Positions 3,288 through 26,647 of a stretch of 64,000 nt of DNA are shown in pieces. Source of the stretch: a virus; the IMG/VR virus record IMGVR_UViG_3300017917_002969, positions 1-64,000 of that record. One strand, 5' to 3'. The translations under genes were made by a program, and so were the position numbers. The notes beneath the pieces were generated by a model. It made no database searches, was not told where the DNA came from, and saw nothing but the letters and a program-made list of their open reading frames with translations. Position 1 is the stretch's first letter; every line of letters starts with the position of its first letter.

Positions 3288-3305
3288 AAGTTCCACGTGG
3301 AACTT
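3288..3305. promoter_or_regulatory. Perfect 18-bp palindrome, parS-like
   Basis: AAGTTCCACGTGGAACTT, intergenic; the core matches parS TGTTCCACGTGGAACA at 14/16. Confidence 0.65.
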
Positions 3306-3631: not shown

Positions 3632-3683
3632 CATAAATTTCACTAACATAAACATATTTATAATAAAAATAAAATATAATAGT

Positions 3684-5495
3684 ATGAAAAAAAATATAAA
3701 CATCAGCCCAGTTGGTCTTAAAGGAAATGAAATCAACGAACGTATGAAACAATTGATGGGAATCCAACCTATCAATGAAAATAAGTCTAATATCGTAATT
3801 GAATTGACCAAGATGGGACCAGACGGTAACGCTTATGCTATCGTTAGAGAAAACCACGAATGGTATATCAAAAAAGCCAATAAGACAAAAAATTTGGTTG
3901 CCGAAGACTTTAAATATATCGGTGGTCTTCAAAACAAAAAACAAGAAGCTTATCCATCATATGCAAAAGCTATAAAGCATTTGAATCTTAAGTTCAGAAG
4001 CCTTGCTGAGGCATATAACTACGATGGAGAGATTAACGTATTTTTAAACGATAATCTTCTAAATGAGAACATGCCAATGGCTGGTGGTTTTGCTGAAATG
4101 AAGACCAATGGATTTACTGGAGAAGGAAATTTATATGGAAACAAACCAATGGATGAAATGTATATGGACGAAGCTAAGTCTAAAAACAATCCATGGGCTA
4201 TTTGCACAGCTAGCGTTGGTAGGGAAGACAAACAAAAATACGAAGCTTGTGTAATGGATGTTAAGAAGAAAATGGGTATGGATGAAATGATTACTAAGGA
4301 AGAATATTCTGACCCAACAAAAAGTGAAATGTTAGACACATTGAAACAGGAATTTGGAGGATTTGAAGGATATGATAATTTTTCAGCTGAAGAGGCTATT
4401 TATTGGTACGCTTATAATAATCATGGGGGGCAAAACTCAAACTTATATAGTACTTTAAGTACCTCAACATATAAACCATCACCGTTAATGAAAAATGCTG
4501 AAGATATTGATGATGATATGGCTATCTCAATGTACAACACATTAGTTGATAAATTTGGTGGCGAGGAAATTGGTCATGGTGATTACGAATTGGATGGTGA
4601 TATTGAAATGACTGAATATGAAAAAGCTATTGATGAAATGATAGCTAAAGATAATAAAAAATCATTTCCAGATTTAACTGAATATATTGTACCTGATTGG
4701 GCTATGTCAGCATTAATAAATGGTGATTATACTGGATTATCTGATGAAGACGAACAAAAATTAGAAATGTTTATAGACGAAGTTATCAAACAAAATGGGA
4801 ACGCTAACTTTATGTTAGGTGACATTGATGGTAAAGATAATTTAGGATTTAAACATAGTAATGATATTGATAATTTAGGTTCAAACGTTTATAGAGTATA
4901 TATTAAACCAGATGAAGAAATTGAAATGACTGAATATAAAAAAGCTATTGATGAAATGATAGCTAAAGAAGAACTTAAGGGTGGTCAGAAAAAACTTGAC
5001 GTTAATAAAAACGGAAAATTGGATGCTGAAGATTTCAAAAAGTTAAGAGCTGGTAAGAAAGGTATGGAAGAAGAATTTCAACCTCATGGTTCTTATACAA
5101 TATCTAATCACGGTGGGTACGAAGTTATGTTAAGCCCTGATGGTGAAATGGCAAAAGTTAGGGATGCTTATGGTTCTGATAACCCTGAAACGTCTGATTG
5201 GTTAGAAATTGAATATGTTTATAATGAAGAAACTGGCGAATTAGAACCAGTTATTGACCCAAATGGTTATAATATACCATTAAATATGGTCATGAGAATC
5301 AATGAAATGACCGCAAAAGAAAAGAAATTTGCTGCATTGGCTGAACCAAAAGATAAGATTACATATGCTGATAAGATTGCTGGTGCAAAGAAAGGTGAAG
5401 TAAAAGAATCTAAATTGAGCATACTTGGTGCTTTAAAGAATATGGACGCAATCATCGACAGTCTCACTGAAGGTGAAGTAAAAAAAAAACTCTAG
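3684..5495 (+). CDS. Modular acidic polyprotein, probable head-associated/internal protein (frame 0 product)
   Basis: ATG 3684 after late motif; modules separated by LNE/MDE/INE/LTE linkers; EF-hand-like LDVNKNGKLDAEDF; ends in an A10 run. Confidence 0.7.
   Translation: MKKNINISPVGLKGNEINERMKQLMGIQPINENKSNIVIELTKMGPDGNAYAIVRENHEWYIKKANKTKNLVAEDFKYIGGLQNKKQEAYPSYAKAIKHLNLKFRSLAEAYNYDGEINVFLNDNLLNENMPMAGGFAEMKTNGFTGEGNLYGNKPMDEMYMDEAKSKNNPWAICTASVGREDKQKYEACVMDVKKKMGMDEMITKEEYSDPTKSEMLDTLKQEFGGFEGYDNFSAEEAIYWYAYNNHGGQNSNLYSTLSTSTYKPSPLMKNAEDIDDDMAISMYNTLVDKFGGEEIGHGDYELDGDIEMTEYEKAIDEMIAKDNKKSFPDLTEYIVPDWAMSALINGDYTGLSDEDEQKLEMFIDEVIKQNGNANFMLGDIDGKDNLGFKHSNDIDNLGSNVYRVYIKPDEEIEMTEYKKAIDEMIAKEELKGGQKKLDVNKNGKLDAEDFKKLRAGKKGMEEEFQPHGSYTISNHGGYEVMLSPDGEMAKVRDAYGSDNPETSDWLEIEYVYNEETGELEPVIDPNGYNIPLNMVMRINEMTAKEKKFAALAEPKDKITYADKIAGAKKGEVKESKLSILGALKNMDAIIDSLTEGEVKKKL
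4602..4969 (+). repeat. 50-bp direct repeat (4602-4651 / 4920-4969) flanking an in-frame module
   Basis: attgaaatgactgaatat(g/a)aaaaagctattgatgaaatgatagctaaaga, 1 mismatch; encodes IEMTEY(E/K)KAIDEMIAK. Confidence 0.95.
5478..5495 (+). other. Candidate -1 frameshift/slippage site (A10 run, 5480-5489)
   Basis: GTA AAA AAA AAA CTC TAG; the -1 frame opens at 5477 (after TGA 5474) and runs without a stop into ORF 5528..6904. Confidence 0.6.
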
Positions 5496-5527
5496 AAACT
5501 AACATAAGCGAGGAAACAAAATATAAA

Positions 5528-6904
5528 TTGAAGATGGCTGGCGCTCCAAAGCCAGCCGCTCCAGCCGCTCCAGCTGCACCAATTGATGACGCTCCACCTG
5601 CTGATGCGTCATTTGACAAGCCTAAATCAAGTGAAAAACCTTTTGATGACACCCCTTTTGATGCTGGTGTTGAGGCTGACGAAGAAACAGACCCAAAAAA
5701 ATTTATTGAGCAATTAACTGGTAAATTGGGCCAGTCATTGAGAAAGTATAGCGAAGAACAAGGTCAACCAGATTTTGAACTTGAGAAATTCGCTATTAAT
5801 TCTCTATTGTCAGCTACTCATACTTCTGAAATGGATGCTGAAGACCAAAAAGACATCATAAACAAAGTTAAAACAGCTGGTAAAGGTGATGAAACTCCAG
5901 AGGAAAAGCCAATGGATGATGAAAAACCAATTGAAGAGCCAGCTGATGATGAAAATTTAGATTTTGGCGATGAAAAAGAATTGGAAGAAAATATGTTTAT
6001 TGAAAACCCTAAAAAACTAAGCATATTTGCGCCAGAAGGTAGCGAAGAGGCTGAATATCAAAAATCACATAATAGTATGGAAAAAGAATCAAACAATTAT
6101 ATGTTTTGGCAAAATCTAAAAACAATCCATCATGCTGCTGGTGAGTTATTAAAAATGAATTACGATGAAGTTGATGCTTTATTATCAGACGGACATGGCT
6201 GGGCTTTGGACCACATGGCAACTTCAGCTGATGATGTTGAGGAAGTTTACCACTTTATTGAGGGTAGATTGAACGATTATCACGTAGATTCAGAAGATGA
6301 ACATGGAATGGAAGATGAATGGTCAGCACCAATGGAACTTCATACAGAAATGCCAGTATCAGATGATTTAAAGTACCATATAGAAAATAACATCCCTTTG
6401 AATGAGACTATTTACAGAATTGGTTCCGATAAGTATTTTAATCTTATTAAAGAAGTTAAAGTGTTATACTCAAAAGGTTTGATAAAGCTAAATGAAAATG
6501 ATACTTTTATTGTTAATGAGTTTGATAATCAATATATTATGCTTGAAGGCAAGAAGGTAAAGATGAATTTTATATATGAAGAAGTTGAAACTGAAGAGCT
6601 ACAAGAAGCCGAATATAAGGGTAAAAAAGTTCAACTAGGTAAACCAAAAAGAGGTGGCTCAAAGAAATTCTATGTTTATGTTAGAGACCCTAAGTCTGGT
6701 AACATTAAAAAAGTTTCTTTCGGTGCTAAGTCTGGTGGTGGTAACTTGGCTGTTAAATTAAGAGACCCTAAAGCTAGAAAAGCTTTTTCTGATAGACATA
6801 ACTGCCCTTCAAAGACTGATAGAACATCTCCAGGATACTGGGCATGCCGTCTACCAAGATATGCTAAATCATTAGGTTTAGCTGGTGGTGGTACATGGTG
6901 GTAA
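5528..6904 (+). CDS. Modular protein, probably the C-terminal extension of 3684 via frameshift
   Basis: Pro/Ala linker, DPKKFIEQLTGKLGQSLR core, further modules after xxE linkers, C-terminal basic Cys/His module (KKFYVYVRDP..RHNC..GYWAC). Confidence 0.7.
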   Translation: MKMAGAPKPAAPAAPAAPIDDAPPADASFDKPKSSEKPFDDTPFDAGVEADEETDPKKFIEQLTGKLGQSLRKYSEEQGQPDFELEKFAINSLLSATHTSEMDAEDQKDIINKVKTAGKGDETPEEKPMDDEKPIEEPADDENLDFGDEKELEENMFIENPKKLSIFAPEGSEEAEYQKSHNSMEKESNNYMFWQNLKTIHHAAGELLKMNYDEVDALLSDGHGWALDHMATSADDVEEVYHFIEGRLNDYHVDSEDEHGMEDEWSAPMELHTEMPVSDDLKYHIENNIPLNETIYRIGSDKYFNLIKEVKVLYSKGLIKLNENDTFIVNEFDNQYIMLEGKKVKMNFIYEEVETEELQEAEYKGKKVQLGKPKRGGSKKFYVYVRDPKSGNIKKVSFGAKSGGGNLAVKLRDPKARKAFSDRHNCPSKTDRTSPGYWACRLPRYAKSLGLAGGGTWW

Positions 6905-6924
6905 TAAAAAATTAAATATTAAGT

Positions 6925-7377
6925 ATGAGTAGAATATCAAAACAAAAACAACATCTGATTGAGCGTAAAAATAAACAGCTTTTGGGTAAACCAGAAATGG
7001 AATGCCCTGAAGCAACTCAAGATTTGGAGTTAAATACCAAAAATAGAGACGCTGCCATAAGTGAACCACATATTCAATATGGTCCATTAAATGTTGATGA
7101 GCCAGCTGATTTTTGGGAAAAAATAGCTGACCATTGGAATACTAGTGTTGAAGCCGCTATGGAATCTAGATGTGGTAATTGTGTTGCTTTTGATATATCA
7201 CCAAGAATGGATGATTGCATGCCAGGTCCAGTATCTGATGAAGATGGAAGATTAGGGTATTGTTGGATGCATCATTTTAAGTGTCATTCAGCTAGAAGCT
7301 GTAGAACATGGGCGAAGGGTGGTCCAATAGAGGAAGATTCAGTATCATATAAATGGCAAGAAAAAAATGAAAAATAA
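6925..7377 (+). CDS. Cys/His-rich probable metal-binding protein
   Basis: CGNC..C..GYCWMHHFKCHSARSCRTW. Confidence 0.7.
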   Translation: MSRISKQKQHLIERKNKQLLGKPEMECPEATQDLELNTKNRDAAISEPHIQYGPLNVDEPADFWEKIADHWNTSVEAAMESRCGNCVAFDISPRMDDCMPGPVSDEDGRLGYCWMHHFKCHSARSCRTWAKGGPIEEDSVSYKWQEKNEK

Positions 7378-9832
7378 TATGAAACCATATAGTGAAGAAA
7401 AAAGTGGTAATATAATTAGAAGAACTTTCTCAAACCTTGTTGAAAGCGAGGAATTGGTATGGCATCGTGATAAAGAAGACAGAATTGTAATTCCTTTAAA
7501 TGAAAATGATTGGTTGGTTCAATTTGACAATGAGCTGCCAAAAAAATTAAATGTTAATGAAGAATTTTTTATACCAAAAAACACTTTTCACAGAGTTATT
7601 AAGGGTTCTGGGGATTTGATGGTGGAGATTATTGAAACGAATTTTGATGATGATTTGGTTGTTTATGAAGCAATTGAAGAAGGAAAGAAGAAAAAGGGTA
7701 AAAAAGACGCTTGTTATCATAAAGTTAGAGCTAGATATGACGTATGGCCATCAGCTTATGCCTGTGTTCCAGAAAATACATCAAAAGCATTAACTAGAGA
7801 TGGTTGGAAACATGTGGATGAATTAAATATTGGTGATGAAATAATGACCTATAATATTGAAAACGATGAATTAGAATTTAAACCAATATTAAATCTCCAC
7901 AGATATAAAGATGTTAAAACAAATGTTGTTAGAAGTGGAAACAATGGCTTTATTTTTGAAGCGACAGATAACCATAAATGGGTTGTTAAATTACCAGAAA
8001 TTAAAGGAAATAGATTGCAAAAATATAATAGAGTAAACGATAAAGCTTTAATTGAGACTAGTGATTTATTAGCAAATAAAAATAATAAAAGTTTGGTTGT
8101 TTCAGCACCATATAATGGTGGTAATAATGTTAAGTTAGATGAAATATTTAAATATGGAACTAACTGGGTTAAATATATTTTAGATATAAGTAGTGAACAA
8201 AGACAAGCGTGGTTATTTAGTGCTATAGTTTATGATGGTAACCAACAAAAAGTAGAAAGATTAACCGAAAATATAAATAATATAGATGACCTAAATTGGC
8301 TATACACTGGTTCACATGGCAAACAATCTTTTGGTTTCAAACAAAAAGATATTGAACATAGAGACGCATTTTTGTTGTCAGCTTTTTTAAACTCTGGCTT
8401 AGTTACTTGGAAAAAAGCTAAAAATAAAGATATTTATTCATGTCATTATACTAGCAATAAACCCCTTAAAAACACATCTAATTTTAAATTAGTTAAAGAA
8501 AATATTTCAGATGTTTGGTGTCCAGAAACAGAAAATGGTACTTGGGTTATGATGCAAGAAACTGAAGGTCGTGGAATTATCACAATAACTGGAAATTCTG
8601 GTGCCCTTGTAAAGTGTCGTAAGGTTGGTGCTGCTAATTGGGGTAATAAGACAAACGAATCAGATGGTGAAAAAATTAATCCAGTTTTTGTAAAAGATTT
8701 TTTAACTGATTTTGGTGTATTAATTTCATTAAATTTTAGTCAAATTACAAAAATGGGTAAAGATTCTGATTCAACAAAAGAATTAGAAGAAATGATGAAA
8801 ACAATTAGAAAACCAATTATAAATGGACAAAATTATTTTGACTTTGTTAAAGATAACATAAATACAATAACTAACAACCCTAAAGTTTTATCAGCTTTAT
8901 TAGGTCAAGTTAGAAATTTATTGATTTATATTGAGCCTAGAGTAGAAAAATTTGTAAAAGACGGACCTGTAAAAATTATTGGTGGTGGTGAAGTTAACTA
9001 TAAAGAAAAGTGGTTAGAAAGAATTAATAAATTAAAAAATGAATATAAAAAAATTATCAATAATTCAGTTAAAGAAGAAACTTCGATTGAAGAAAAGTGG
9101 TCTGAAAAATACAAAAGAAGCATAGATTGCAACAATCCAAAAGGATTTAGTCAAAGAGCGCATTGCCAAGGCAGAAAGAAAACAAATGAATCTGAAGAAG
9201 ACACTAAAGAATTAATTAATTTGGCTCATAGTGCTATTACTAGAAAAAAAGGAAAGGATTATGCACCAGATGTTCATGAATTGCAAGCGTGGATTGATGC
9301 GTATTTAGCTAAAGATAAAAAAATGGATGAGGGAAAAAAGACTGATTTTTCTAAGGAAAAAGAACAAGGTCTTCACGGATGGTTTGCCAGACAAGGTGGT
9401 GAAGGAAAATCACAGGGTTGGGTAGATTGCAACACATGTAGGACAGATAAGGAAACTGGTAGGAAAAAATGCAAACCTTGTGGTAGAAAAGAAGGTGAAA
9501 ACAGAAAATATCCAGCTTGTAGACCAACACCTTCTGCTTGTGGAACACCTAAAAAAGGAAAAAGCTGGGGTAAAAAGGCTGGAAAGGCTAACGAAAACTT
9601 GTCATTACCAGAAAATTTGAGTATTTTTGTTGATAAAACACAAATTAAAAGTATTCTTAGAGAAACATTTAACCAAGAAGATACCATGACAGAACCAATG
9701 ACACAACCAGCGCCAGTTAAACCAAAAGAGGCCCCAACAAAGCCTTTTACTGAACCAGTTAAACCAAGTAGAAAGGATAAACCTTTTCTTCCAATGCCTA
9801 ATGTTCAACCAGACCCAAAAGCTAAAAAATAA
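7367..9832 (+). CDS. Modular polyprotein (cupin-like domain plus basic Cys-rich modules) containing an intein
   Basis: N-terminal WHRD..FIPKNTFHRVIKG cupin pattern; modules DACYHKV..WPSAYA/SGALVKCR, KWSEKYKRSIDC..HC, CNTC..CKPCGR..YPACRP, bounded by IEE/TNE/MDE. Confidence 0.75.
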   Translation: MKNNMKPYSEEKSGNIIRRTFSNLVESEELVWHRDKEDRIVIPLNENDWLVQFDNELPKKLNVNEEFFIPKNTFHRVIKGSGDLMVEIIETNFDDDLVVYEAIEEGKKKKGKKDACYHKVRARYDVWPSAYACVPENTSKALTRDGWKHVDELNIGDEIMTYNIENDELEFKPILNLHRYKDVKTNVVRSGNNGFIFEATDNHKWVVKLPEIKGNRLQKYNRVNDKALIETSDLLANKNNKSLVVSAPYNGGNNVKLDEIFKYGTNWVKYILDISSEQRQAWLFSAIVYDGNQQKVERLTENINNIDDLNWLYTGSHGKQSFGFKQKDIEHRDAFLLSAFLNSGLVTWKKAKNKDIYSCHYTSNKPLKNTSNFKLVKENISDVWCPETENGTWVMMQETEGRGIITITGNSGALVKCRKVGAANWGNKTNESDGEKINPVFVKDFLTDFGVLISLNFSQITKMGKDSDSTKELEEMMKTIRKPIINGQNYFDFVKDNINTITNNPKVLSALLGQVRNLLIYIEPRVEKFVKDGPVKIIGGGEVNYKEKWLERINKLKNEYKKIINNSVKEETSIEEKWSEKYKRSIDCNNPKGFSQRAHCQGRKKTNESEEDTKELINLAHSAITRKKGKDYAPDVHELQAWIDAYLAKDKKMDEGKKTDFSKEKEQGLHGWFARQGGEGKSQGWVDCNTCRTDKETGRKKCKPCGRKEGENRKYPACRPTPSACGTPKKGKSWGKKAGKANENLSLPENLSIFVDKTQIKSILRETFNQEDTMTEPMTQPAPVKPKEAPTKPFTEPVKPSRKDKPFLPMPNVQPDPKAKK
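7763..8596 (+). mobile_element. Intein (278 aa) with degenerate LAGLIDADG-like region
   Basis: Starts CVPENTSKALTRDGWK; block B TDNHKW; block F VWCPET; ends ITGN followed by Ser+1; AWLFSAIVYDG remnant. Confidence 0.85.
9599..9629 (+). promoter_or_regulatory. Bacteroidota-type promoter embedded in CDS
   Basis: TTG-N20-TATTTTTG. Confidence 0.4.
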
Positions 9833-12551: not shown

Positions 12552-15500
12552 ATGCTAACAAAAACAGAGATATTTAAAGAGTATGCGAAGTGTTTGGCTA
12601 GTCCTATCTATGCGATAGAGACTTATCTAGAAACATTCGACAAAACTCAAGAAGGCTTTGTTCCGTTTAAGTTATTCCCAAGACAGAAGGAAATCATACA
12701 TGCTTATGATAAGCATAGGTTTAACCTTATAACCAAACCAAGACAAGCTGGGGTTTCTACAACAACAGCTGCATACATGTCTATTAAGGTTGGTTTTGCC
12801 GATGTAGATAACCCAGAAGCGGTACTAATTATTGCGAACAAACAAGAATTGGCGTTTGAATTCTTAGCCAAGATTAAAGATTTTGTTTCCCAGTTACCTA
12901 GATGGGTTTGGGGAAGCGAATATTACGGAAGCAACAAAAATGAAGAGAAATCAATATTTTTAACAGATTCTAAGAAAGAAATTAAATTGCCTAACGGTAG
13001 TCGTGTAAAGGCAGTTGCCACATCTAAAGATGCGTTGCGTGGTTTTACACCAACATATCTTGTAATGGATGAGGCCGCTTATATTGATAATGGCGCTGAG
13101 GTATTTGGTGCCGCTTTAACTGCGTTAGGTACGGGTGGTAAAGCAACACTTATTTCCACTCCACGTGGTATGGATGCTCTTTATTATAAAACATACGACC
13201 AAGCAAAGAAAAAAGAAAACAACTTCAACATCATTGAGATGAAATGGTATGAAGATTTGCGATACAATAAAGACTTGCGTTGGATTAAGAATGATGTAAT
13301 TGAACCAGAAGTTGAATTTACATTTGGTTCTTATAACCAAAGAATAAGCGAAGGGTGGAAACCCACATCATCTTGGTATGAGGAAATGTGTCGTGGTATG
13401 AACAATGATGCTAAGATGATTGCACAAGAATTGGACGTATCATTTATTGGTTCTGGTGGTAATGTTATTGATGAAGAATACATTGATTTTCAGAACAAAA
13501 ACAATGTTAAAGAACCTTTATATACTGCTGGACCAGAAGGTGAAATATGGATTTGGGCTGAGCCACAAGAAGGTCATCAATACATCATGGGTTGTTTACC
13601 ACCAAATGAAAAAGTGTTAACAAATAATGGGTTAAAAAACATACAAGACGTTGAATTAGATGATATGTTGGTTAGCGAAAATGGTGAATATGTTAACATT
13701 ATTAACAAACAAATTTATCCAGTCATTAATGAAGACATATTTGAAGTTCAAATAGATAATACTTTTAGAACAACAACTTTTACTAAGGAACACCCATTAT
13801 TGGTTAGTAAACCAATACTTAAAAGAAATTATGACAAAAAAAATAATCTTTATAAATTTAACGAGAGATATTGGGATTTTAATTTTAATTTCACTAGAAT
13901 GGAAGAGGTTGAAATTGGAGATTGGGTTAAAGTCCCTAATATTTATAAAAAAGAATTTACTAGTATTTTAGATAATAAATGGTTTATTACGAAAAATATT
14001 AGAAACGATTTTAATATAGCCTCACCATTAAATGATAAAGATTTTTGGTGGTTTATAGGTGTGTGGTTAGGTGATGGATGGTTAGGTAAATTAAATGATA
14101 GTCATACTATATCTATCTGTTTTGATTCTAAAGATGATTATTATTTGAATAAGACAAATGAATTAATTATTAGATTATTTGATAGGTCACCTTCATTTAT
14201 TGATAGAGGTAAAAACACTTTTGAATTGGTGTTCAATTCAAAATTTCTTTACTATTTCATATTAGAAAATTTCGGTCAATATTCTAATGGTAAGAAAATA
14301 AATGAATGGGTTAAATTCATCCCTAAAGATTTTAAAATTGAATTGATTAAAGGTTATTTGGCTAGTGATGGTTCTTGGTTTAAAACTGAAAAAAATGGTA
14401 AGGTAAATTCTAAAATAAGCTTTATTAGTATAAATTTAGAATTATTAGAATCAATTCAAGATATAATATTTTCGTTGGGGGTGATATCGTCATTAAATAA
14501 GTTAAGAAGCGCTAGTAATAGTCATCATATACAAGGCAAACTAGTAAACCAAAAAGAAGCATATAACTTATGTTTGTCCAACCAAGATAGTTTAGATTTG
14601 ATTAATTTATTAAATAATGATGTTTTAGACCCTAAATTAAATAGATTTAAGTTAGATGAATTTAAGACTATTAATAATAGAACTATAAAATCTTGTCATT
14701 TTAGTAAAGATAAAGATTTTATTTATTTTAAAATTAAAAATATTAATAAGAATAAATTTACTGGAAATGTTTATAATTTTGAATGCGATACACACACATT
14801 TATGTGTCATCATATAACAACACATAATTGTGATGTGTCAAGAGGTGATGGAGAGGATTCATCTACAATGGTTATTCTTGATTTTACAACAATGGAACAA
14901 GTTGTTGAATACCAAGGAAAGATACAACCAGATTTGCTAGCTCAAATTGTTGAAGAATACGGAAACCTATACGAAGCATATACGGTTGTCGATGTTACTG
15001 GTGGTATGGGTGTTTCAACGGTTTTAAAGCTTCTTGAGTTCAATTACAAGAGACTTCACTATGATAATCAAAACGGTAAGGTCTTATCTTCAAAACAGAG
15101 AGAATTGTCAAATTATAATAAAGACAATAAAATACCAGGGTTTCACGCAACATCGGTTCGTTTGCCAATGATTTCAAACTTTGAATACAAAATTAGGACT
15201 GATGCTGTTAAGATTCGTTCTGTTAGAATGACATCAGAGATGAAAACATTTATCTATAAGAACGGTAGACCAGACCATATGGAAGGTTATCATGATGATT
15301 TAATTATGGCTATGGCTATGTGTTTATGGGTTGTTGAACATTCATTCAAAAATCTAGAACGTCTTGAGAAGCAGAATAAAGCAATGTTAAGCAGCTGGGT
15401 TATTGGTGGTTCTAATACAATAAAACCAGAATATAAAGCTAATACAACTGATAATCAACCAGTGAATAATAAACCAACAGTTATTAGTAGTTGGATGATT

Positions 15501-15602
15501 GGTGGTGAAAATAAAACCAAACCAAGGGCTAACACATTTGTGAGCAAGAATTTGCAAGACCCAACTGGTCAGTATTCTTGGTTGTTTGGAAGCAAAAAAT
15601 AA
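12552..15602 (+). CDS. terL: Terminase large subunit (T4 gp17-like), intein-containing
   Basis: KPRQAGVST Walker A, LVMDEAA Walker B, LISTPRG, QELD, nuclease G/CDVSRG..DSS and HDDLIMA. Confidence 0.95.
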   Translation: MLTKTEIFKEYAKCLASPIYAIETYLETFDKTQEGFVPFKLFPRQKEIIHAYDKHRFNLITKPRQAGVSTTTAAYMSIKVGFADVDNPEAVLIIANKQELAFEFLAKIKDFVSQLPRWVWGSEYYGSNKNEEKSIFLTDSKKEIKLPNGSRVKAVATSKDALRGFTPTYLVMDEAAYIDNGAEVFGAALTALGTGGKATLISTPRGMDALYYKTYDQAKKKENNFNIIEMKWYEDLRYNKDLRWIKNDVIEPEVEFTFGSYNQRISEGWKPTSSWYEEMCRGMNNDAKMIAQELDVSFIGSGGNVIDEEYIDFQNKNNVKEPLYTAGPEGEIWIWAEPQEGHQYIMGCLPPNEKVLTNNGLKNIQDVELDDMLVSENGEYVNIINKQIYPVINEDIFEVQIDNTFRTTTFTKEHPLLVSKPILKRNYDKKNNLYKFNERYWDFNFNFTRMEEVEIGDWVKVPNIYKKEFTSILDNKWFITKNIRNDFNIASPLNDKDFWWFIGVWLGDGWLGKLNDSHTISICFDSKDDYYLNKTNELIIRLFDRSPSFIDRGKNTFELVFNSKFLYYFILENFGQYSNGKKINEWVKFIPKDFKIELIKGYLASDGSWFKTEKNGKVNSKISFISINLELLESIQDIIFSLGVISSLNKLRSASNSHHIQGKLVNQKEAYNLCLSNQDSLDLINLLNNDVLDPKLNRFKLDEFKTINNRTIKSCHFSKDKDFIYFKIKNINKNKFTGNVYNFECDTHTFMCHHITTHNCDVSRGDGEDSSTMVILDFTTMEQVVEYQGKIQPDLLAQIVEEYGNLYEAYTVVDVTGGMGVSTVLKLLEFNYKRLHYDNQNGKVLSSKQRELSNYNKDNKIPGFHATSVRLPMISNFEYKIRTDAVKIRSVRMTSEMKTFIYKNGRPDHMEGYHDDLIMAMAMCLWVVEHSFKNLERLEKQNKAMLSSWVIGGSNTIKPEYKANTTDNQPVNNKPTVISSWMIGGENKTKPRANTFVSKNLQDPTGQYSWLFGSKK
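13593..14828 (+). mobile_element. Intein with LAGLIDADG endonuclease (412 aa)
   Basis: CLPPNEKVLT start, TKEHP block B, IGVWLGDG and IKGYLASDG motifs, VYNFE..THN followed by Cys+1. Confidence 0.95.
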
Positions 15603-15916: not shown

Positions 15917-18900
15917 ATGGCTGAAAATTTAACAATATTTCAACGACTTGGTAGAATCATCGGGCCAGATGCTATCAAGTCACAACCAAAGCAAACTTCT
16001 CAATCACCAAGATACAATATCAATGGTGATGTTTTGCTTAAAACAGACAACAAAGCTGATTACGAAAGAGCTAAGTTACAAGCCCAGCAAAATAAGTATT
16101 TGGCTCAAATGTGGAAAAAGGTTGAGAGTGGTTTATTCCAACAATCAATCAACTATGAAACAACCCGTATTGGTTCTTATTCAGACTTTGAGGCAATGGA
16201 ATTCTATCCAACCATTGCAGCCGCTTTGGATATTATGATGGAAGAATCGACAACGGTTAACGAAAAAGGTAAAATGCTTAATGTTTATTCAGATAGCAAC
16301 CGTGTTAAGGGTATCCTTGAAGACTTATTTTACAACAGACTTGACATTCATACTTCACTTCCAATGTGGACCAGAAACACACCAATTAGAGAAAATTCAA
16401 TAATTCCGCTATTAGATGGTACCGAATGTACAATTAAAGAATTATCTGATAGGGTTAAAAATGGTGAAGAAATTTGGTCTTACGCTGTCCAAGATAAAAC
16501 AAAAACCATCGTTCCGAGTAAAATTATTTGGTGTGACCTTACTAGGAAAGATAGCGAATTATATAGGGTAACATTAGATGATGGTACTTATATTGATACC
16601 ACGCCAGACCATGAATACATGTTAAGAGATGGTTCTTTTAAAAGAGCAGATAAATTAACTGAAGGTCAATCTTTAATGCCTTTCTATACTAGAAAAAGCG
16701 AAAAAAAGAAAGACAGAATTTCTGGTTATGAAAAAGTTTTTAATCCAAACACTGGAAAATATAAATTCACACACACTATGGTATCTCATGAGTGTGTTAG
16801 AAATTTGGAGAAAGAAAAATTAATTAATGAACAATTTGACACACATCACATTGATTTTAATAAACTAAATAATCACCCAAATAATCTGAAAAGATTGACT
16901 CATTCTGAACATTTCAAACTACATATAGAACATTTTGATAAAATTTTAGGTTCACCAGAAGTTGTTAAAAAAAGAATGGAAGGGATTGATAAATATCTTA
17001 GGTCTGACGAAAGAAGAGAACGTCTTTCGAAAGAAATGAGTGGTTTCTACCCTAAATATTTTAATGAATACAACAATAGCGAATTACACACTAAACATAA
17101 TAAAGTTCGTTCAACTAAAATGTTAAGTAATTGGAGTTCTGATAATTTTATTGTTAAAACTAAAAAAGGAATGACAATTGAAATAACTGATGATTGTTTA
17201 AATTATATTTCTGAATTAATAATATCTAATGAAAAATATGTTGGTGTTAATGAATTGTCTAAGTTACTGAAAAAAGATGAAAAATTTATAAAGTTATTTA
17301 AAATAACTTATACGTTAAAAAAAGATATCCAAAAATCCATAAACCCAACAACAATAAAAAAAGTTATTTTTAGAAAAACGGGTAAAAACTATTTTGATTA
17401 TGCCTTATCAATTAAACCAAGTTTGATTATTGATAAAGCATATATTAAGGCTAAATCTATTTTTATTGGTAAGACCACTTCAAAAATAGTTAATCATAAA
17501 GTTGTTTCGGTTGTTAAATTAGAAGAAACCTCTGATGTTTATTGTTTGGAAGCTGTTGGACCAAATGGAGAACATGATAGACATAATTTTCCTGTCTGTG
17601 GCTTTAACAAAAATAATTCATATTCAAGAAGTTCTGGGGTTTTCTTATCCAACTGTAAGTATGGTGATAACTTTGTTTATTTAAACATTGACGAGAAGTA
17701 TGGTATTCTTAGCGCTAAGCAAATGCCTAACTACGAAATGGAACGTAGAGAAAGTGGATTATTTGATATGATTACTGGTCGTGAAACACCAAACCATCAA
17801 GTTGCTAGTAGCGATAAAACCAAGTTCTATTGGAGAGGACGTGATGTTGAGTTTAATTCGTGGCAAATTGCTCACTTCCGTTTATTGGGTGATGATAGAA
17901 GACTTCCTTACGGTACTTCTGTTTTGGAAAAGGCAAGACGTATTTGGAAGCAACTTATCCTATCTGAAGACTCAATGCTTGTTTATCGTGTTACCCGTGC
18001 ACCAGAAAGACGTGTTTATAAAATCTATGTTGGTAACATAGATGATGCTGATGTACCAGCATATGTAAACGAAATCGCTGATAGATTTAAGCGTATTCCA
18101 ATTGTTGACCCGCAAACTGGTCAAATGGACCTTAGATACAATCAGTTATCTAATGACCAAGATTATTTTATTCCTGTTCGTACTGAAGATGCACCAAATC
18201 CGATTGATACCTTACCAGGTGCTTCAAACTTGGACCAAATTGCAGATATTGAATACTTAAGGAATAACTTATTTACCGCTTTACGTGTACCAAAGCCATT
18301 TTTAGGTTTTGATGAGACTACTGGTGAAGGTAAGAATCTTGCGTTACAAGATATTCGTTTTTCAAGGACGATAAATCGTATCCAGCAATCAATGCTTCAA
18401 GAACTTAACAAGATTGCTATTATTCACTTGTATCTTTTAGGTTTTGAAGAAGACTTTGATAACTTCACAATAACCCTTAATAACCCATCAACACAAGCTG
18501 AAATGCTTAAGGTTGAGCATACACAAGCTAAGGTTACGCTTTACAAGGATGCAGTATCTGATGCTGGTAATGGATTTGCTGCTATGTCAATGACACGTGC
18601 TAAAAGAGAAATTCTTGGTATGTCTGACGATGATATTAAGCAAGACTTGCTTGAACAAAGAATGGAAAAGGCAGCTGCTGCTGAATTGGCTAACTCAGCT
18701 AACGTTATTAAGCATACTGGTATGTTTGATGTTGTTGATAGAATCTATGGTGATATGCAATTGGCTCTACAAGGTGGAGGTGGTGAAGGTGGTGAAAAAG
18801 GTGAAGAAACTAGCAGTGGTGGAGGCGGAGGCGGTGGTCTCGGTGGTTCATTCGGTGGTGGTGGTTTAGGTGGTGAAGACCTAGATTTTGGTGAGGAAGA

Positions 18901-19264
18901 AGCTGGTGGTGAAAGTGAAGCAGCTACAGAAGCTGGTGCTGAAGCAGAGGCTGGTGCTGAACTTGCAGGTGGTGAGGAAGAAGCGGCAGGTGAAGAAGCG
19001 GCTGCTGAAACTGCTCCAACAGAAGTAACAGAATCAATTAAAAAGGTTAATAAATTGCTTAAAGAACAAAAGACTACATTAACCAAAAAAATAAATGATA
19101 GAACCAAAAAATATCAAAACATATTCATAAACAGACTTGTTGAATCAATCAAACCAACAGTTGTTAAAAAGGAAGAGAAGGTTAAGATTTACGACAAGAA
19201 CGTAAAAATAAACAAAGACATTGATACTATGATAAATGATATCAATAAAATGTTGGATGAATAA
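15917..19264 (+). CDS. Portal protein (T4 gp20-like), intein-containing
   Basis: IAAALDI, CKYGDNF, PYGTSVLEKARRIWKQL.L.EDSMLVYRVTRAPERRVYKI.VGN, IDTLPG, ALRVPK; Gly/Glu-rich tail. Confidence 0.95.
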   Translation: MAENLTIFQRLGRIIGPDAIKSQPKQTSQSPRYNINGDVLLKTDNKADYERAKLQAQQNKYLAQMWKKVESGLFQQSINYETTRIGSYSDFEAMEFYPTIAAALDIMMEESTTVNEKGKMLNVYSDSNRVKGILEDLFYNRLDIHTSLPMWTRNTPIRENSIIPLLDGTECTIKELSDRVKNGEEIWSYAVQDKTKTIVPSKIIWCDLTRKDSELYRVTLDDGTYIDTTPDHEYMLRDGSFKRADKLTEGQSLMPFYTRKSEKKKDRISGYEKVFNPNTGKYKFTHTMVSHECVRNLEKEKLINEQFDTHHIDFNKLNNHPNNLKRLTHSEHFKLHIEHFDKILGSPEVVKKRMEGIDKYLRSDERRERLSKEMSGFYPKYFNEYNNSELHTKHNKVRSTKMLSNWSSDNFIVKTKKGMTIEITDDCLNYISELIISNEKYVGVNELSKLLKKDEKFIKLFKITYTLKKDIQKSINPTTIKKVIFRKTGKNYFDYALSIKPSLIIDKAYIKAKSIFIGKTTSKIVNHKVVSVVKLEETSDVYCLEAVGPNGEHDRHNFPVCGFNKNNSYSRSSGVFLSNCKYGDNFVYLNIDEKYGILSAKQMPNYEMERRESGLFDMITGRETPNHQVASSDKTKFYWRGRDVEFNSWQIAHFRLLGDDRRLPYGTSVLEKARRIWKQLILSEDSMLVYRVTRAPERRVYKIYVGNIDDADVPAYVNEIADRFKRIPIVDPQTGQMDLRYNQLSNDQDYFIPVRTEDAPNPIDTLPGASNLDQIADIEYLRNNLFTALRVPKPFLGFDETTGEGKNLALQDIRFSRTINRIQQSMLQELNKIAIIHLYLLGFEEDFDNFTITLNNPSTQAEMLKVEHTQAKVTLYKDAVSDAGNGFAAMSMTRAKREILGMSDDDIKQDLLEQRMEKAAAAELANSANVIKHTGMFDVVDRIYGDMQLALQGGGGEGGEKGEETSSGGGGGGGLGGSFGGGGLGGEDLDFGEEEAGGESEAATEAGAEAEAGAELAGGEEEAAGEEAAAETAPTEVTESIKKVNKLLKEQKTTLTKKINDRTKKYQNIFINRLVESIKPTVVKKEEKVKIYDKNVKINKDIDTMINDINKMLDE
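16382..17653 (+). mobile_element. Atypical intein (424 aa; Pro1, block-F Cys) with HNH endonuclease
   Basis: PIRENSIIPLLDG start, TTPDH block B, HHIDFNKLNNHPNNL HNH, VYCLEA block F, ends FLSN followed by Cys+1. Confidence 0.85.
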
Positions 19265-19311: not shown

Positions 19312-20100
19312 ATGACAAACTTGAAAGAAACCATAAAAAACTTTGGTGCCATTAAAGATACTTTCAACACTATTTTAGCTGAAAGTGTTATGACCAAAGA
19401 TACAGATAAAAAAAAGTTATTTAAACAATATATTGAGTTATTGAAAGAAAATGAAATTCTTAAAACTCAATTTATGGTTTATACCAATATTGAAACCAAA
19501 GTTGAACCAGATGTTGCAAAAGCTACACAATTTGTAAAAGAAAACATTGATTTATTTTCTAAGTTTAGCAAAAAAGCAATATATGAAGCTAATACAAAAT
19601 TGAAAAGTGTGTTACCAACAGAAGAACTTGTTGATGATTTGACTGAGTTACATGAAAATATTGCTAAACTTATTTTTACAGAAAAAAACGCAACTACTAT
19701 AGATACAATCATTGAAGCAACTAGCAAAGTAGTTGATTATATTACAAAAAACAAAGCAAAAGTTGTAAATGAAAGTATAGAATTACCTAACAGTATGCTT
19801 ACCAGTCTTATGGTTGAAAAATATAATGAAAGATATTCAACACTTGATGAGACCGAAAAGAAAGTTATTAAATCTTTGATTGATGCTGATGATACTAAGA
19901 AAAAAGAAATTTATTCAACAACATTAAGAGAATGTATCGATTTAATTAATGAAAAACTAGATACTACTGATTTAGATACCAAAGACAAATTATTAAGAGT
20001 TAAAGATAGATTATTGAATGACAAGCAAGATATAACTGAAGATTTCACCAAGAATATTTCAAAATTAATTGAGCTTAGAAATAATCTTAAAGAAAACTAA
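19312..20100 (+). CDS. Helical hypothetical protein in head module
   Basis: 262 aa between portal and protease, preceded by ATATTTATT. Confidence 0.75.
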   Translation: MTNLKETIKNFGAIKDTFNTILAESVMTKDTDKKKLFKQYIELLKENEILKTQFMVYTNIETKVEPDVAKATQFVKENIDLFSKFSKKAIYEANTKLKSVLPTEELVDDLTELHENIAKLIFTEKNATTIDTIIEATSKVVDYITKNKAKVVNESIELPNSMLTSLMVEKYNERYSTLDETEKKVIKSLIDADDTKKKEIYSTTLRECIDLINEKLDTTDLDTKDKLLRVKDRLLNDKQDITEDFTKNISKLIELRNNLKEN

Positions 20101-21067: not shown

Positions 21068-21790
21068 ATGGATATAAATTACGATAAAATAAAAACGCTT
21101 AGACGTGGACAAACAGGTTTCGGCTATTTAATTGAGCACGATGCTGGTTATATAAGTCCAGATGAACCAAGAAATCAAGCGTTTATCAGTGAACTTAAAA
21201 AATTAGAAACTGGTAAATTGGTTATTGCCGAACCATTGGTCGTATATGTTATATTACAAAAATATGGTGTATTAAATCGTAATGGTAGAGTATATCCAGA
21301 ATCTGTACTTAAAAAACAAGTAGAACTTTATCAAAGAGCTATTAAAGAAAGAGCTGCGGTTGGTGAATTGGACCACCCAGAATCAAGCATTATTGCTGGT
21401 GATAGAATATCACATAATATTTTAGAAACATGGTGGGAAGGTAAAACCCTTATGGGTAAAATGGAAATCCTTATGACACCAGGTTTTATTAATTACGGTA
21501 TTGTATCAACAAAGGGTGATGAAGTTGCAAACTTACTAAGAAACAGAATAAAGATTGGTGTTTCATCAAGAGGTGTTGGTTCATTAAAAGAAGGTAAAAA
21601 TGGTGAACAAATAGTACAGGATGATTTTGAAATCATTTGTTGGGATGTTGTTACTGCCCCATCAACACCAGATGCTTGGATATTTAAAAATGTTGAAGAG
21701 GCAAAACCTTATGTTGAAAATGTAGAATTTAAGAAAGATGTGATTAAAGAAACACTGTCTGACAAATTAAATAAATTCTTATTGGATTAA
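21068..21790 (+). CDS. Prohead maturation protease (T4 gp21-like)
   Basis: NRNGRVYP, GELDHP, SHNI, GVSSRGVGS, DVV.APSTPDA. Confidence 0.95.
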   Translation: MDINYDKIKTLRRGQTGFGYLIEHDAGYISPDEPRNQAFISELKKLETGKLVIAEPLVVYVILQKYGVLNRNGRVYPESVLKKQVELYQRAIKERAAVGELDHPESSIIAGDRISHNILETWWEGKTLMGKMEILMTPGFINYGIVSTKGDEVANLLRNRIKIGVSSRGVGSLKEGKNGEQIVQDDFEIICWDVVTAPSTPDAWIFKNVEEAKPYVENVEFKKDVIKETLSDKLNKFLLD

Positions 21791-23258: not shown

Positions 23259-25136
23259 ATGTCACATTTATTAACATCTGGACAAGTGGGTAACATCGGA
23301 TTGAACCATATGAAGGCTATCCGTAAAGAAACCCAAGCAAAATGGGATGCTCTAGGCTTCCTTGATGGTCTTAAAGGCCACGTAAAAGAAAACATTGCTC
23401 AGTTATATGAGAACCAAGCTTCTAGCTTGTTAACTGAGTCAACTACCGCAACATCATCTGGTTCATTCGAAACAGTTGTGTTCCCTATCGTAAGACGTGT
23501 ATTCTCTAAATTGCTTGCTAACGACATCGTGTCTGTACAAGCTATGAACATGCCTATCGGTAAATTGTTCTACTTCGTTCCTCAAACTTCTAGCCGTGTT
23601 AATGCTAGCGGAACTGGTGGTGACCCATATGCTACAGTACCTTATGATGGTCAATATTCTGCACACACTGCAATGAATGGTTTAAATAATGGTACCGCAA
23701 CTGGTGCAGCTCTTCCTGATTGTGTTGTTGGTGTTAACTGTAGAGTAACTCAACTTGAAGCTAAAAACCTATACGACATTTTCTACAATGACGGTATGTT
23801 TGACAATTCAAAAGGTACTCTTACAATTAAAACTATGAATAATTTAAGAGCGTTTACTTTTTCTGATAATGGTACACTTAGCGCTGCTGCGCCAACAGCT
23901 ACACTTCCAACTGCTACTGACGGTTCTTTAAGAAGTGTTATTATCGGTTTATCTGGTTTCACTGGTGGTGCTCCAGATAGTAAAGGAACTGGAAACGGTG
24001 GTCGTGAAGTATTAACAGGTCCTGATGGTAACAACATGGATACTGAGTCATTTTTAGCTTCATTGATTGCAGTTACATCATCAAACATTCTTGATAGAGA
24101 TGGTAACGTTATAGTTGCTGCTAATACTGAAGTTCCATTACGTGTTGTTACTCAACAATACAGCAAGAGTATAGTACAAACAACTGGAACTCTAACAACA
24201 CCTAACGGTCTTATGTATGTTGAAGTTGACCTTCGTCACCCTGTGGGTACAAGTGCTGGTTCTACCCCTGCTGCTGCTGGTACTGCAACTTACGATGGTT
24301 ATGTAGGTGCTTCTGCAACTACTGCTTCTGCTTTCACAAGTATCCTTTCATTCGCTTGGGCTGAATACGCTTCTCTTGAATTGGAAACTGAAATGGGTGA
24401 AGTATCATTCACTCTTCAAGAAGTTGTTGTAGCTGTTGAAGAAAGAAAATTACGTGCAACATGGTCACCAGAATTGGCTCAAGACGTTAGTGCATTCCAC
24501 AACATCGATGCTGAAGCTGAATTGACTGCTATGTTGTCTGAGCAAGTTGCTGCTGAAATCGACCGTGAAATCCTTAGAGATTTGCGTAAATTGGCTGCAT
24601 GGCAACTTCGTTGGGATTACAACGGTTGGAGAAAAGCTTCTTCTGCTGCAAGCCCATACACTCAAAAAGACTGGAACCAAACTCTTATCACAAGAATTAA
24701 CCAGTTGAGTGCTCAAATCCACAAATCAACTCTTCGTGGTGGTGCTAACTTCGTTGTTGTTTCTTCTGAAATTTCAGCTGTATTCGATGACTTAGAATAC
24801 TTCCACGTATCTGATGCTAACCCAGAGCAAGACCAATACAACATGGGTATTGAAAGAATCGGTACATTGGGTGGTCGTTATCAAGTATATCGTGACCCAT
24901 ATGCGCCAGCTTACTCAGTAATCGTTGGTCACAAAGGTAAGTCATTGTTGGATACAGGTTACATCTACGCACCATACGTGCCATTGCAACTTACTCCTAC
25001 TATGTACAATCCATTTAACTTTGCTCCAGTTAAAGGTATCATGACTCGTTACGCTAAAAAGTCTGTGAATAATCGCTTCTACGGCCACGTGCGTGTAGAC
25101 GGTGTTCCTACTTTCAACGTAGCAGAATTGAGATAA
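23259..25136 (+). CDS. Major capsid protein (T4 gp23-like) with large Ser/Thr/Gly-rich insertion
   Basis: PIVRRVF, VSVQAMNMP.G, RKLRATWSPELAQD..AFH.IDAEAEL, EIDREI, YAPYVPL, GIMTRY. Confidence 0.97.
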   Translation: MSHLLTSGQVGNIGLNHMKAIRKETQAKWDALGFLDGLKGHVKENIAQLYENQASSLLTESTTATSSGSFETVVFPIVRRVFSKLLANDIVSVQAMNMPIGKLFYFVPQTSSRVNASGTGGDPYATVPYDGQYSAHTAMNGLNNGTATGAALPDCVVGVNCRVTQLEAKNLYDIFYNDGMFDNSKGTLTIKTMNNLRAFTFSDNGTLSAAAPTATLPTATDGSLRSVIIGLSGFTGGAPDSKGTGNGGREVLTGPDGNNMDTESFLASLIAVTSSNILDRDGNVIVAANTEVPLRVVTQQYSKSIVQTTGTLTTPNGLMYVEVDLRHPVGTSAGSTPAAAGTATYDGYVGASATTASAFTSILSFAWAEYASLELETEMGEVSFTLQEVVVAVEERKLRATWSPELAQDVSAFHNIDAEAELTAMLSEQVAAEIDREILRDLRKLAAWQLRWDYNGWRKASSAASPYTQKDWNQTLITRINQLSAQIHKSTLRGGANFVVVSSEISAVFDDLEYFHVSDANPEQDQYNMGIERIGTLGGRYQVYRDPYAPAYSVIVGHKGKSLLDTGYIYAPYVPLQLTPTMYNPFNFAPVKGIMTRYAKKSVNNRFYGHVRVDGVPTFNVAELR

Positions 25137-25191: not shown

Positions 25192-25219
25192 TTATATAAT
25201 TGTCAAGATATTTATAGAT

Positions 25220-25852
25220 ATGAAAGCTTTGATTAAAAGATTATTAAAAGAGGAATTAGAAAATTATCGTGGAGAGCATCAAGCCGCAGATAAAGAAGAC
25301 ATTCCAATTTATAATATGACTTTAGGTTATCCAGAGGACATATATTCTAACGAAGCTGCTAAAATGTATGGTGAGCATAGCGATGAATATTCTGACCAAT
25401 ATTCTTTAAGTGTCATTCATTCAGTTAGAAATAAACCAAAGGCTAAAGTTAAAATTTACAGAGCAGTACCAGATATTAATTATGAGGTTAATAAAGACTT
25501 AAAAGATTTAAATAATATTATTGGTTACTATTATAAATTTGGTTTCTTTCCTATGAAGTTAAAATTGATTCATGATTTGGATGATAAATACTATGAACAA
25601 ATACCTGATTATGAAGAAAGGCAAGCTAAGATATTAAGTGATATTGAATCGCAAAGGGATGATATTATAAGTAAAAAAAATAAATCTATCGGTATTAACA
25701 ATGGTGATTGGGTGACAATAAATCCAGATTACGCTAAATCACATGGTAAAAATAATCTTAATAACCGATTTAAGGTTGTTACTAAAACAGTACCAGCAAA
25801 TACTTTATTTACATTTGGCGACAGTATTCATGAATGGGGTTACAATATCTAG
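25220..25852 (+). CDS. Leader-bearing ADP-ribosyltransferase-like protein
   Basis: MKALIKRLLKEE leader; KIYRAVP..GDWVT...YA..H..EWGY resembles R-S/T-E ART strands. Confidence 0.6.
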   Translation: MKALIKRLLKEELENYRGEHQAADKEDIPIYNMTLGYPEDIYSNEAAKMYGEHSDEYSDQYSLSVIHSVRNKPKAKVKIYRAVPDINYEVNKDLKDLNNIIGYYYKFGFFPMKLKLIHDLDDKYYEQIPDYEERQAKILSDIESQRDDIISKKNKSIGINNGDWVTINPDYAKSHGKNNLNNRFKVVTKTVPANTLFTFGDSIHEWGYNI

Positions 25853-25888: not shown

Positions 25889-26647
25889 ATGAAATCTTTA
25901 ATTAAAACATTATTAAGGGAGAATTTAATGGGTGGTAAATATATATATCACGGGACTGGTAAAGGTCAAGCATTAAACATACAACGTGATGGTTATATGA
26001 AACTTAATAAAACTGGTGAAGAAAAGCCATCTATATCGTTCACTAAAGATTTAGATTACGCTAATTACTATGCTAAAGCAAAAGGTGGTAATAAAGCAGT
26101 TATTTTAAGAACAAAACTAACTAAAGATTTTATTTTATCTCCAAGAATAACAAATAACAAAGGGGATGAATTTATCACATTTAAACCAGTTGTATCTAAT
26201 AATTTAGAAATTTTAAGTAAAGATAATAATTGGCAACCGTTGAGTAAATGGGATATTATATTTGATGAACCTAAAAATTTATTTAATGAAAGTTCAAGTG
26301 GTAGTCTGAACCCAACATTATTGTCTAAAGATGATATGATTAAAATGGGTGGTACTGGCCAATTAAATAAGGCGTTTGAAAGATATATTCTTATCGATAA
26401 GATAACTGGATTAGACCCAGACCCAAGTGATTGGACCGATGATAGTGGTAACGTAAGAAAATTTGAAAAAGGTCAACCTATAGAAAAATCAATAGAAGTT
26501 ATTTATGATTCTTTTGATGATTTATATTATTTACAAAATGGAAACCATAGAATAAAACAAGCTAAAATAAATGGTGATAAATATATCAGAGCATTTATAC
26601 AGCCAGATAAAGGAAAAATAGGTGATGACGCTAAATTAACTGTTTAG
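25889..26647 (+). CDS. Leader + ART-like domain + ParB/Srx-like domain
   Basis: MKSLIKTLLRE leader; YHGT..SFT.DLDYA..YA..DE; FNE linker; YYLQNGNHRI..A. Confidence 0.65.
   Translation: MKSLIKTLLRENLMGGKYIYHGTGKGQALNIQRDGYMKLNKTGEEKPSISFTKDLDYANYYAKAKGGNKAVILRTKLTKDFILSPRITNNKGDEFITFKPVVSNNLEILSKDNNWQPLSKWDIIFDEPKNLFNESSSGSLNPTLLSKDDMIKMGGTGQLNKAFERYILIDKITGLDPDPSDWTDDSGNVRKFEKGQPIEKSIEVIYDSFDDLYYLQNGNHRIKQAKINGDKYIRAFIQPDKGKIGDDAKLTV

Follow-up and report, generated by a model that had tools for sequence, protein, structure and literature searches.

Module-accreting carrier proteins and a conserved slip site upstream of terL in an uncultured T4-like phage

Overview

The window analysed here comprises 64,000 nucleotides (nt), the first 64 kb of the 97.6-kb virus record IMGVR_UViG_3300017917_002969 (G+C ~30%), and carries upstream of terL a row of open reading frames (ORFs), A to D. 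Three of these, A, B and D, belong to a family of carrier proteins that is real, widespread and undescribed, accretes modules and has a conserved slip site. We read them, with a probability of about 0.5, as the late-transcribed carrier locus of an uncultured T4-like myophage, in which captured modules, joined in part through the slip site, would be brought into the head by a propeptide and cut after glutamate. A preliminary description of the window had singled out three long ORFs upstream of terL as strings of unrelated modules, and both their positions and the module chains were confirmed. The modules proved to be real evolutionary units, although amino acids (aa) 131-410 of D are better described as an intein and B is a conserved family over most of its length. 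Scans of IMG/VR yielded 94 related loci with the gene order A - BD - E - F - G - terL, and this synteny with packaging and head genes is strict over about 80 loci and extends into distant relatives.

Constant ends and captured middle of ORF A

Between a constant N-terminal domain and an equally constant C-terminus (aa 541-603), ORF A (3684..5495, 603 aa; ORFs A to D and all features within them lie on the + strand) strings together complete captured small genes, the end of one being tied to the start of the next through an acidic linker. The N-terminal domain (aa 1-128; 3684..4067) contains a leader-like helix, carries the tripeptide INE at aa 30-32 and ends in NDNLLNE. It is kept in 79 loci, the glutamate at its end, E128, is invariant in 40 sequences, and conservation drops away past this residue. 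An AlphaFold 2 (AF2) model of the domain (predicted local distance difference test score, pLDDT, of 71) shows a helix in the aa 15-36 region, then a low-confidence stretch around INE (aa 29-34), with disorder from aa 129 onward. A fold search with this model gave no match in the PDB and only uncharacterised phage proteins in BFVD, and a search of the ESM Atlas was uninformative. No Pfam or PHROG match to a MuF/SPP1 gp7 domain was found at the N-terminus of A, B or D.

The variable middle of A is mostly private to this phage and differs from phage to phage. The NPWAICTASVG module (aa ~160-205; 4161..4298) is present in about 33 related loci and missing from others. It is followed by a DUF7680-like module (AIYWY..HGGQNSNLYS; aa 205-297; 4296..4574), which has a weak match to Pfam DUF7680 and is 71% identical to a stand-alone protein of 118 aa, P0015. 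The DUF6926 module (SALINGDYTGL; aa 330-409; 4671..4910; Pfam PF21977, E 2.5e-6) spans the entire length of the stand-alone proteins P0053 (81 aa) and P0050 (87 aa), and this insert is bracketed by two linker copies of a 59-nt direct repeat (4593..4651, encoding ..IEMTEYEKAIDEMIAK, and 4911..4969), which are 93% identical, 318 nt apart and in frame. An EF-hand-like module (aa ~425-460; 4956..5063) occurs in 30 loci, its weak EF-hand matches of E 0.008-0.03 being below the Pfam cut-off, and the GSYTISNHGGYE module (aa 462-540; 5067..5303) again spans entire stand-alone proteins, P0292 (82 aa) and P0249 (94 aa). Every variable module of A that was tested aligns end to end with whole small proteins, the stand-alone homologues having 80-120 aa. 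Internal Met codons were also considered as internal translation starts and were dropped, as no consistent Shine-Dalgarno motif lies upstream of them; the real gene starts of this phage likewise lack such a motif.

Gain and loss of modules among relatives

An exhaustive search with A aa 150-603 returned 1563 representative clusters, whose proteins range from 81 to 1590 aa and in which the matches are discrete segments at variable positions, and a D-type search returned 6635 proteins at E <= 1e-5. Homologous module-chain proteins are found in 485 phage records, nearly all of cyanophages, where they are annotated as hypothetical. The A alleles P0008 and P0012 are near-identical, with the same flanks and a different cargo module between them. 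Outside A, Flavobacterium phage immuto has the segments B aa 281-450 and D aa 4-90 as neighbouring small genes, a pair that is found in Melnitz and pT24 as well, while the D-type chains of relatives include GNAT, Zn-protease-like and other inserts. The stand-alone homologues, the allelic cassette swaps and the 59-nt repeat flanking an in-frame insert together support the view that small genes have been captured, gained and lost. The preliminary description had proposed such capture, and the claim held when the modules were searched one by one, giving stand-alone homologues and module sets that differ among close relatives. In a distant relative, a DUF6926 module lies inside the F-position protein between an E-like gene and terL (L116:7776-8723), so that other genes of the cluster take module inserts as well.

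A conserved slip site between A and B

A run of ten adenines (A10; 5480..5489), the longest homopolymer in the 97.6-kb contig, lies a few codons before the stop of A, whose 3' end reads GTA AAA AAA AAA CTC TAG. ORF B as called occupies 5528-6904 from a nominal TTG/ATG start. Its frame, which is the -1 frame of A, opens at 5477, just 5' of the run (5477..6904), with KKKTLETNISEETKYKLK ahead of the nominal start and a conserved pre-start peptide that ends in TKYKLK. After KKKTLETNISEETKYKLK, B is composed of the conserved N-terminal part of BD, an acidic linker, an NYMFW..VYHF module and a basic Cys module matching phrog_7595 (B aa 357-441; 6596..6850), the last of which is a stand-alone gene of 90 aa in pelagiphage HTVC026P (gp24) and is also found in other phages.

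About 55 distinct related loci have an A9-A11 run (nearly always A10) at the end of the A gene, and in all of them the following gene lies in the -1 frame and is open through the run, with an overlap of 12-63 nt. No conserved start is found for B, and in 18 relatives the 50-128 conserved codons past the run include no ATG, GTG or TTG. Judged by this pattern, A and B are one translational unit joined by the slip site. The slippage may be due to the polymerase or to the ribosome, either agent being possible. A conserved RNA structure around the A10 run was looked for and none was found, so a classical stimulated -1 frameshift is not supported.

A run of ten identical bases is also a typical site of sequencing error, and the long ORFs could be taken for artefacts of misassembly, of homopolymer error or of chance frames in AT-rich DNA. 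We consider this hardly credible. The -1 relation is kept with 9, 10 or 11 A's in independent assemblies, and it is thus not a homopolymer sequencing error; thousands of homologues exist and conservation is seen at the protein level in every segment. The constancy of the -1 relation and the conserved but start-less N-terminus of BD led us to reject the artefact.

An ancestral BD gene split by a cassette

Most relatives have one gene, BD, in place of B and the last ~80 residues of D. By this comparison, the ancestral BD gene is split here by an inserted cassette consisting of gene C and the N-terminal modules of D. ORF C (6925..7377), which lies between B and D, encodes a four-Cys protein of 150 aa. 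Only 15 of the related loci have this gene, and in phage records its relatives carry the annotation high potential iron-sulfur protein. ORF D (7367..9832, 821 aa) is ordered as a cupin-like module, a WPSAYA module with an intein, an alpha/beta module, a KYK module, a helical module, the GLHGWF Cys module and the ancestral BD tail, and these modules vary among orthologues. The basic GLHGWF..WVDC..PACRP Cys module (aa ~655-745; 9329..9601) is near-invariant in 19 orthologues. The C-terminal tail (aa ~746-821; 9602..9829) is found in 75 loci, where it is mostly fused straight behind a B-type phrog_7595 module. An AF2 model of an intein-less orthologue of D has low confidence for the basic Cys modules, which come out as disordered or uncertain.

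The segment D aa 131-410 (7757..8596, 280 aa) starts with Cys and ends with Gly-Asn, followed by Ser at the +1 position (C131...N410, S411). It matches the phi92-type DNA polymerase inteins (tblastn, E 2e-14) and, weakly, Hint, and it interrupts a conserved host motif that reads WPSAYA-SGALVKCRK without a break in intein-less orthologues. Its penultimate residue is Gly, not His. With its N-terminal Cys, C-terminal Asn, +1 Ser and intein-less alleles, this segment is, by its sequence features, an intein and not a cargo module. The DNA of the C-extein at 8596-8651 is 89-91% identical to cyanophage P-SSM2 and to marine virus records, which suggests either homing-linked conservation or a recent transfer.

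Probable late expression and links to the virion

The motif TATTTATA (3655..3662, + strand) lies 22 nt 5' of the ATG of A. The same motif is found directly 5' of terL (12533), of the prohead protease gene (21042) and of two internal-protein-like (IP-like) genes (25209, 25858/25878), and it may be the late promoter element of this phage. It was not found before B, C or D, and because it precedes A but not these three, A to G look like one late unit. Further + strand copies lie at 442, 2359 and 3354, and copies of the motif sit 10-25 nt 5' of many + strand gene starts.

A link to virions comes from cyanophage relatives of D. D matches phrog_727 (E 8e-16) and phrog_38880 (E 1e-10). The S-SM1 protein SSM1_115 (T4-GC119) matches phrog_727 at E 2e-191 and has phrog_38880 in common with D, and the WPSAYA module of D is 70% identical to SSM1_115 (BLASTP, E 2e-19). 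Purified virions of S-SM1 contained T4-GC119, with 13 peptide counts (PMC3037559, Suppl. Table 8). A second protein, ORF160 of S-CREM2, is built of the same modules as D and was identified in virions by 7 unique peptides (PMC10665884, Table 3). In cyanophages, the gene for T4-GC119 follows terS and, wherever both terminase genes can be seen, lies between terS and terL.

A second link is a portable leader of ~25 aa, MK..KQRLFEVMxRLDKTFKPKLNE, shared by no fewer than 14 of the retrieved proteins, which among them carry three or more different modules. Three A modules have stand-alone versions with this KLNE-ending leader, and the leader of P0015 matches A aa 15-36 (BLASTP, E 7e-5); in this genome, the KQRLFEVM-type leader occurs in A only. 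In distant relatives, leader-bearing genes adjoin A-like, E-like, terL and portal genes. At two loci, tandem genes have the KQRLFEVM..LNE leader in common (L127:4534-6221 and L111:7028-8309), an arrangement that recalls the variable internal-protein locus of T4-type phages. For one leader-bearing protein, P0197, no relative was found among isolated phages.

Taken as a whole, A, B and D are probably loaded into the capsid or otherwise associated with the head. The preliminary description had called these proteins capsid cargo. The cyanophage virion proteomes and the portable LNE leader speak for this claim indirectly. Against it, none of A, B, C and D begins with the T4-like leader MK(A/S)LIKxLL(K/R)E that the phage's own IP-like genes carry.

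This missing leader is one of several points that weigh against packaging and that would fit proteins that never enter the virion, i.e., host-takeover or DNA-binding modules fused to spare separate starts. On that account, the nearness to terL and the xxE sites would be incidental, and the cyanophage detections would represent co-purified abundant basic proteins that bind DNA. Stand-alone modules are found among early or replication genes, i.e., non-structural genes, in HTVC026P, immuto and Melnitz, and in small podoviruses. Syn9 gp114 was not detected in virions (PMC3037559, Suppl. Table 8), the authors of the S-CREM2 study caution that abundant proteins can co-purify with virions (PMC10665884), and the count of cleavage motifs, given below, is at the level of chance. 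However, the locus keeps its strict synteny with packaging and head genes, A has the same upstream motif as terL, the protease gene and the IP-like genes, two independent virion proteomes detected proteins made of these modules, and an LNE-ending portable leader has no evident role in a cytoplasmic protein. We therefore regard proteins confined to the cell as unlikely.

Glutamate at module boundaries

Cleavage between the modules by the head protease is plausible, judged from how glutamate is placed at their boundaries. The linkers that had been reported to end in LNE, INE, MDE, LQE, IEE and, twice, KTNE are all present. Besides the invariant E128 of A, the glutamate recurs at fixed places across relatives. 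At the A-B joint, [LIV]-x-E stands directly before TKYKLK in 19/19 loci; the GLHGWF module is preceded by [VIL]-x-E-A in 63-65/70 distinct contexts; and hydrophobic-x-Glu precedes the KYK module in 33/33 contexts and the phrog_7595 module in 31/31. A glutamate also follows the module end in WPSAYA (65/73), KYK (19/21), CWKGY (20/21) and the BD tail (13/15). By these sequence counts, the positional conservation of Glu at boundaries exceeds chance, unlike the count of the motif. Within A, the dipeptide E-M is enriched (11 vs 3.5, p<0.001). Enrichment of the dipeptide NE is only mild, with an observed/expected ratio of 1.3-1.4. Captured genes keep their initiator Met, so that a cut after the preceding Glu would restore native N-termini.

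Several results do not favour this cleavage. The plain [LI]xE motif is not above chance in comparison with shuffled sequences (A, 11 vs 8.7; B, 7 vs 6.0; D, 13 vs 8.8). A crude test of the P3 position, based on our own tally of boundary types, found a hydrophobic residue at 8/13 types (binomial p=0.055), and several boundaries read T/S/H-N-E, which is not a hydrophobic P3. Moreover, A and BD both keep a constant C-terminus, which hints at a function in the intact form.

The last point leads to the possibility that these are intact multi-domain proteins of the virion, for example DNA-condensing internal proteins or scaffold-like proteins, in which the termini would act as anchors, the middle would tolerate inserts, and only a propeptide or nothing at all would be removed. 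Such proteins would be expected to look as A and BD do, with constant termini and a variable middle. The linkers of A have their Met/Asp/Glu-rich style in common with a 441-aa scaffold-like protein of this phage, and for the basic Cys modules the prediction is either disorder or uncertain. In the giant phage SPN3US, 42 head proteins are uncleaved, and the cleavage sites identified lie, with one exception, in N-terminal propeptides. However, intact proteins would not account for a glutamate that is conserved at internal boundaries inside otherwise variable linkers, nor for E-M junctions that keep the initiator Met of captured genes, and unrelated enzyme domains in relatives are hard to explain for a purely structural protein. 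We consider packaging without internal cleavage unlikely.

Neighbouring genes

A T4-type head module follows A to D in the window, with terL, the portal gene, the scaffold-like gene and the major capsid protein (MCP) gene in this order on the + strand. Both terL (12552-15602, +, 1016 aa) and the portal gene (15917-19264, 1115 aa) carry large inserts and have PHROG matches to the ribonucleotide-reductase large-subunit family (possibly to an intein in that family) and to HNH endonucleases. The gene at 21068-21790 (+), which the preliminary description had named as a gp21 homologue, does encode a T4 gp21-type prohead protease (phrog_207, head maturation protease, E 1e-42) and is the proposed processing enzyme. 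The MCP belongs to the gp23 family (23259-25136) and reads LLTE then STTA in the region of aa 57-60, with an LTE that we take to be the counterpart of the site where T4 gp23 is cut. The acidic scaffold-like protein mentioned above (441 aa) is of Met/Asp/Glu-rich low complexity.

Behind the portal gene, a protein of 262 aa (19312-20100) has an excess of [LI]xE motifs (13 vs 5.4 expected, p about 0.001), the appearance expected of a prohead core protein that is chopped by the protease. Two genes right behind the MCP gene begin with MKALIKRLLKE (25217-25852) and MKSLIKTLLRE (25889-26647). These leaders of 11 residues end in L-x-E and resemble the capsid targeting sequence (CTS) of T4, and both genes are candidates for classical internal proteins; the first has a match resembling the C-terminal domain of ParB (phrog_2579, E 2e-30).

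Upstream of the locus, a GC-rich palindrome, GTTCCACGTGGAAC, occupies 3291-3304, in the gap that precedes a terminator-like hairpin. An 84-aa ORF upstream of A was compared with T4-GC403 of S-SM1 and showed no relation, and G and E showed no detectable relation to the structural and small proteins that precede terL in cyanophages. Profiles of the neighbours E, F and G gave no match when searched against PDB sequences.

Proposed mechanism and implications

In the mechanism that we favour, the N-terminal leader or domain of A would work like the propeptides of T4 and of giant phages and bring the chain into the prohead. At the A10 run, a fraction of the products would run on in the -1 frame into B, and the predicted products are the short form A (603 aa) and a fusion of A with B (about 1077 aa); the carrier fusion and the slip site would thus set which modules are packaged and in what ratio. 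The gp21-type protease would then cut after conserved glutamates, for which the candidate sites are INE at the end of the leader, LLNE at the end of the N-terminal domain, [LIV]-x-E before TKYKLK at the A-B joint and many module boundaries. The basic Cys-rich peptides and small effectors released in this way would stay with the DNA.

More tentatively, the locus may be a Gag-Pol-like device, in which a propeptide carrier extended by slippage would load a library of captured genes, gp21-type cuts would restore their Met starts, and dozens of peptides and effectors would be injected. This reading, which would also take in the cyanophage gp114 family, is possible but not one that we would favour.

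Module-chain proteins are very common in aquatic phage sequences, yet their annotation goes no further than hypothetical. Should they be head cargo, a large class of proteins injected together with the DNA of marine and lake phages would have been named, the purpose of many small conserved ORFs of marine phages would be explained, and a simple evolutionary route to packaging a new protein would be apparent, namely its fusion to a carrier. Directly testable predictions follow from the portable leader and the boundary sites, which are also possible parts for bringing foreign proteins into capsids.

Comparison with known systems

The preliminary description had spoken of a eukaryotic-virus-style polyprotein. 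This wording overstates the novelty, as T4 and giant phages already process head cargo by means of propeptides. In a picornavirus-type polyprotein, the viral protease cuts one precursor at defined sites into proteins that function separately; here, the sequence shows the module chain and candidate cleavage sites.

The cyanophage T4-GC119 proteins (Syn9 gp114, S-SM1 SSM1_115, S-CREM2 ORF160; phrog_727) share with the present family the basic Cys modules WPSAYASGALVKCRK, L-H/R-x-WF..GWV, KYKKSIDC and CWKGY, a beads-on-a-string build with very variable length (276-2985 nt) and a place beside the terminase genes. They differ in that no A-type N-terminal domain or A10 partner was seen in the cyanophage loci that were read. 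In addition, they are annotated as hypothetical or structural, and the detection in virions is theirs rather than that of this phage.

In T4, the internal proteins IPI-III and Alt carry a capsid targeting sequence and are processed by gp21 (Mullaney and Black 1996; PMC9026906), and a foreign protein placed behind the T4 leader is likewise packaged and delivered (PMC9026906). The present system is similar in its diverse cargo with a short N-terminal leader ending in hydrophobic-x-Glu, in encoding a gp21-type protease and in the fast turnover of the cargo set between related phages. It differs in several respects. First, many modules stand here behind one carrier, whereas each T4 internal protein has a leader of its own. 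Second, the leader is ~25 aa, or a domain of 128 aa, rather than 10 aa, and a slip site extends the carrier. Third, packaging and cleavage are predictions here. Fourth, this phage also has separate IP-like genes with a T4-like leader.

The ejection or inner-body proteins of giant phages (phiKZ, 201phi2-1, SPN3US) have long N-terminal propeptides that are cut several times after Glu (PMC10052503, PMC9026906). These propeptides, at 111-254 aa, are comparable to the 128-aa N-terminal domain of A, there are several Glu sites per protein, and the protease is T4 gp21-like; some of the related contigs found here are themselves 300-360 kb. No sequence or fold similarity was found between giant-phage cargo and A. 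In giant phages, the propeptide is fragmented and one mature protein is left, whereas here several unrelated modules are proposed to be released.

Genes that give two products by homopolymer slippage include Thermus dnaX, Citrobacter tssM (PMC4256274) and lambda G/GT (reviewed in PMC5009743). They share with the A-B pair a conserved A/T run of >=9, a start-less -1 ORF and, as predicted here, short and long products with a common N-terminus. The protein family is another one here, and no stimulatory RNA structure was found.

Lastly, the retroviral or totiviral Gag-Pol arrangement is comparable as an analogy only. There is no homology, and the cargo here consists of changing small modules rather than a replicase. 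In both, however, a frameshift fusion would tether cargo to a particle-targeting part at a set ratio, and a protease would free that cargo.

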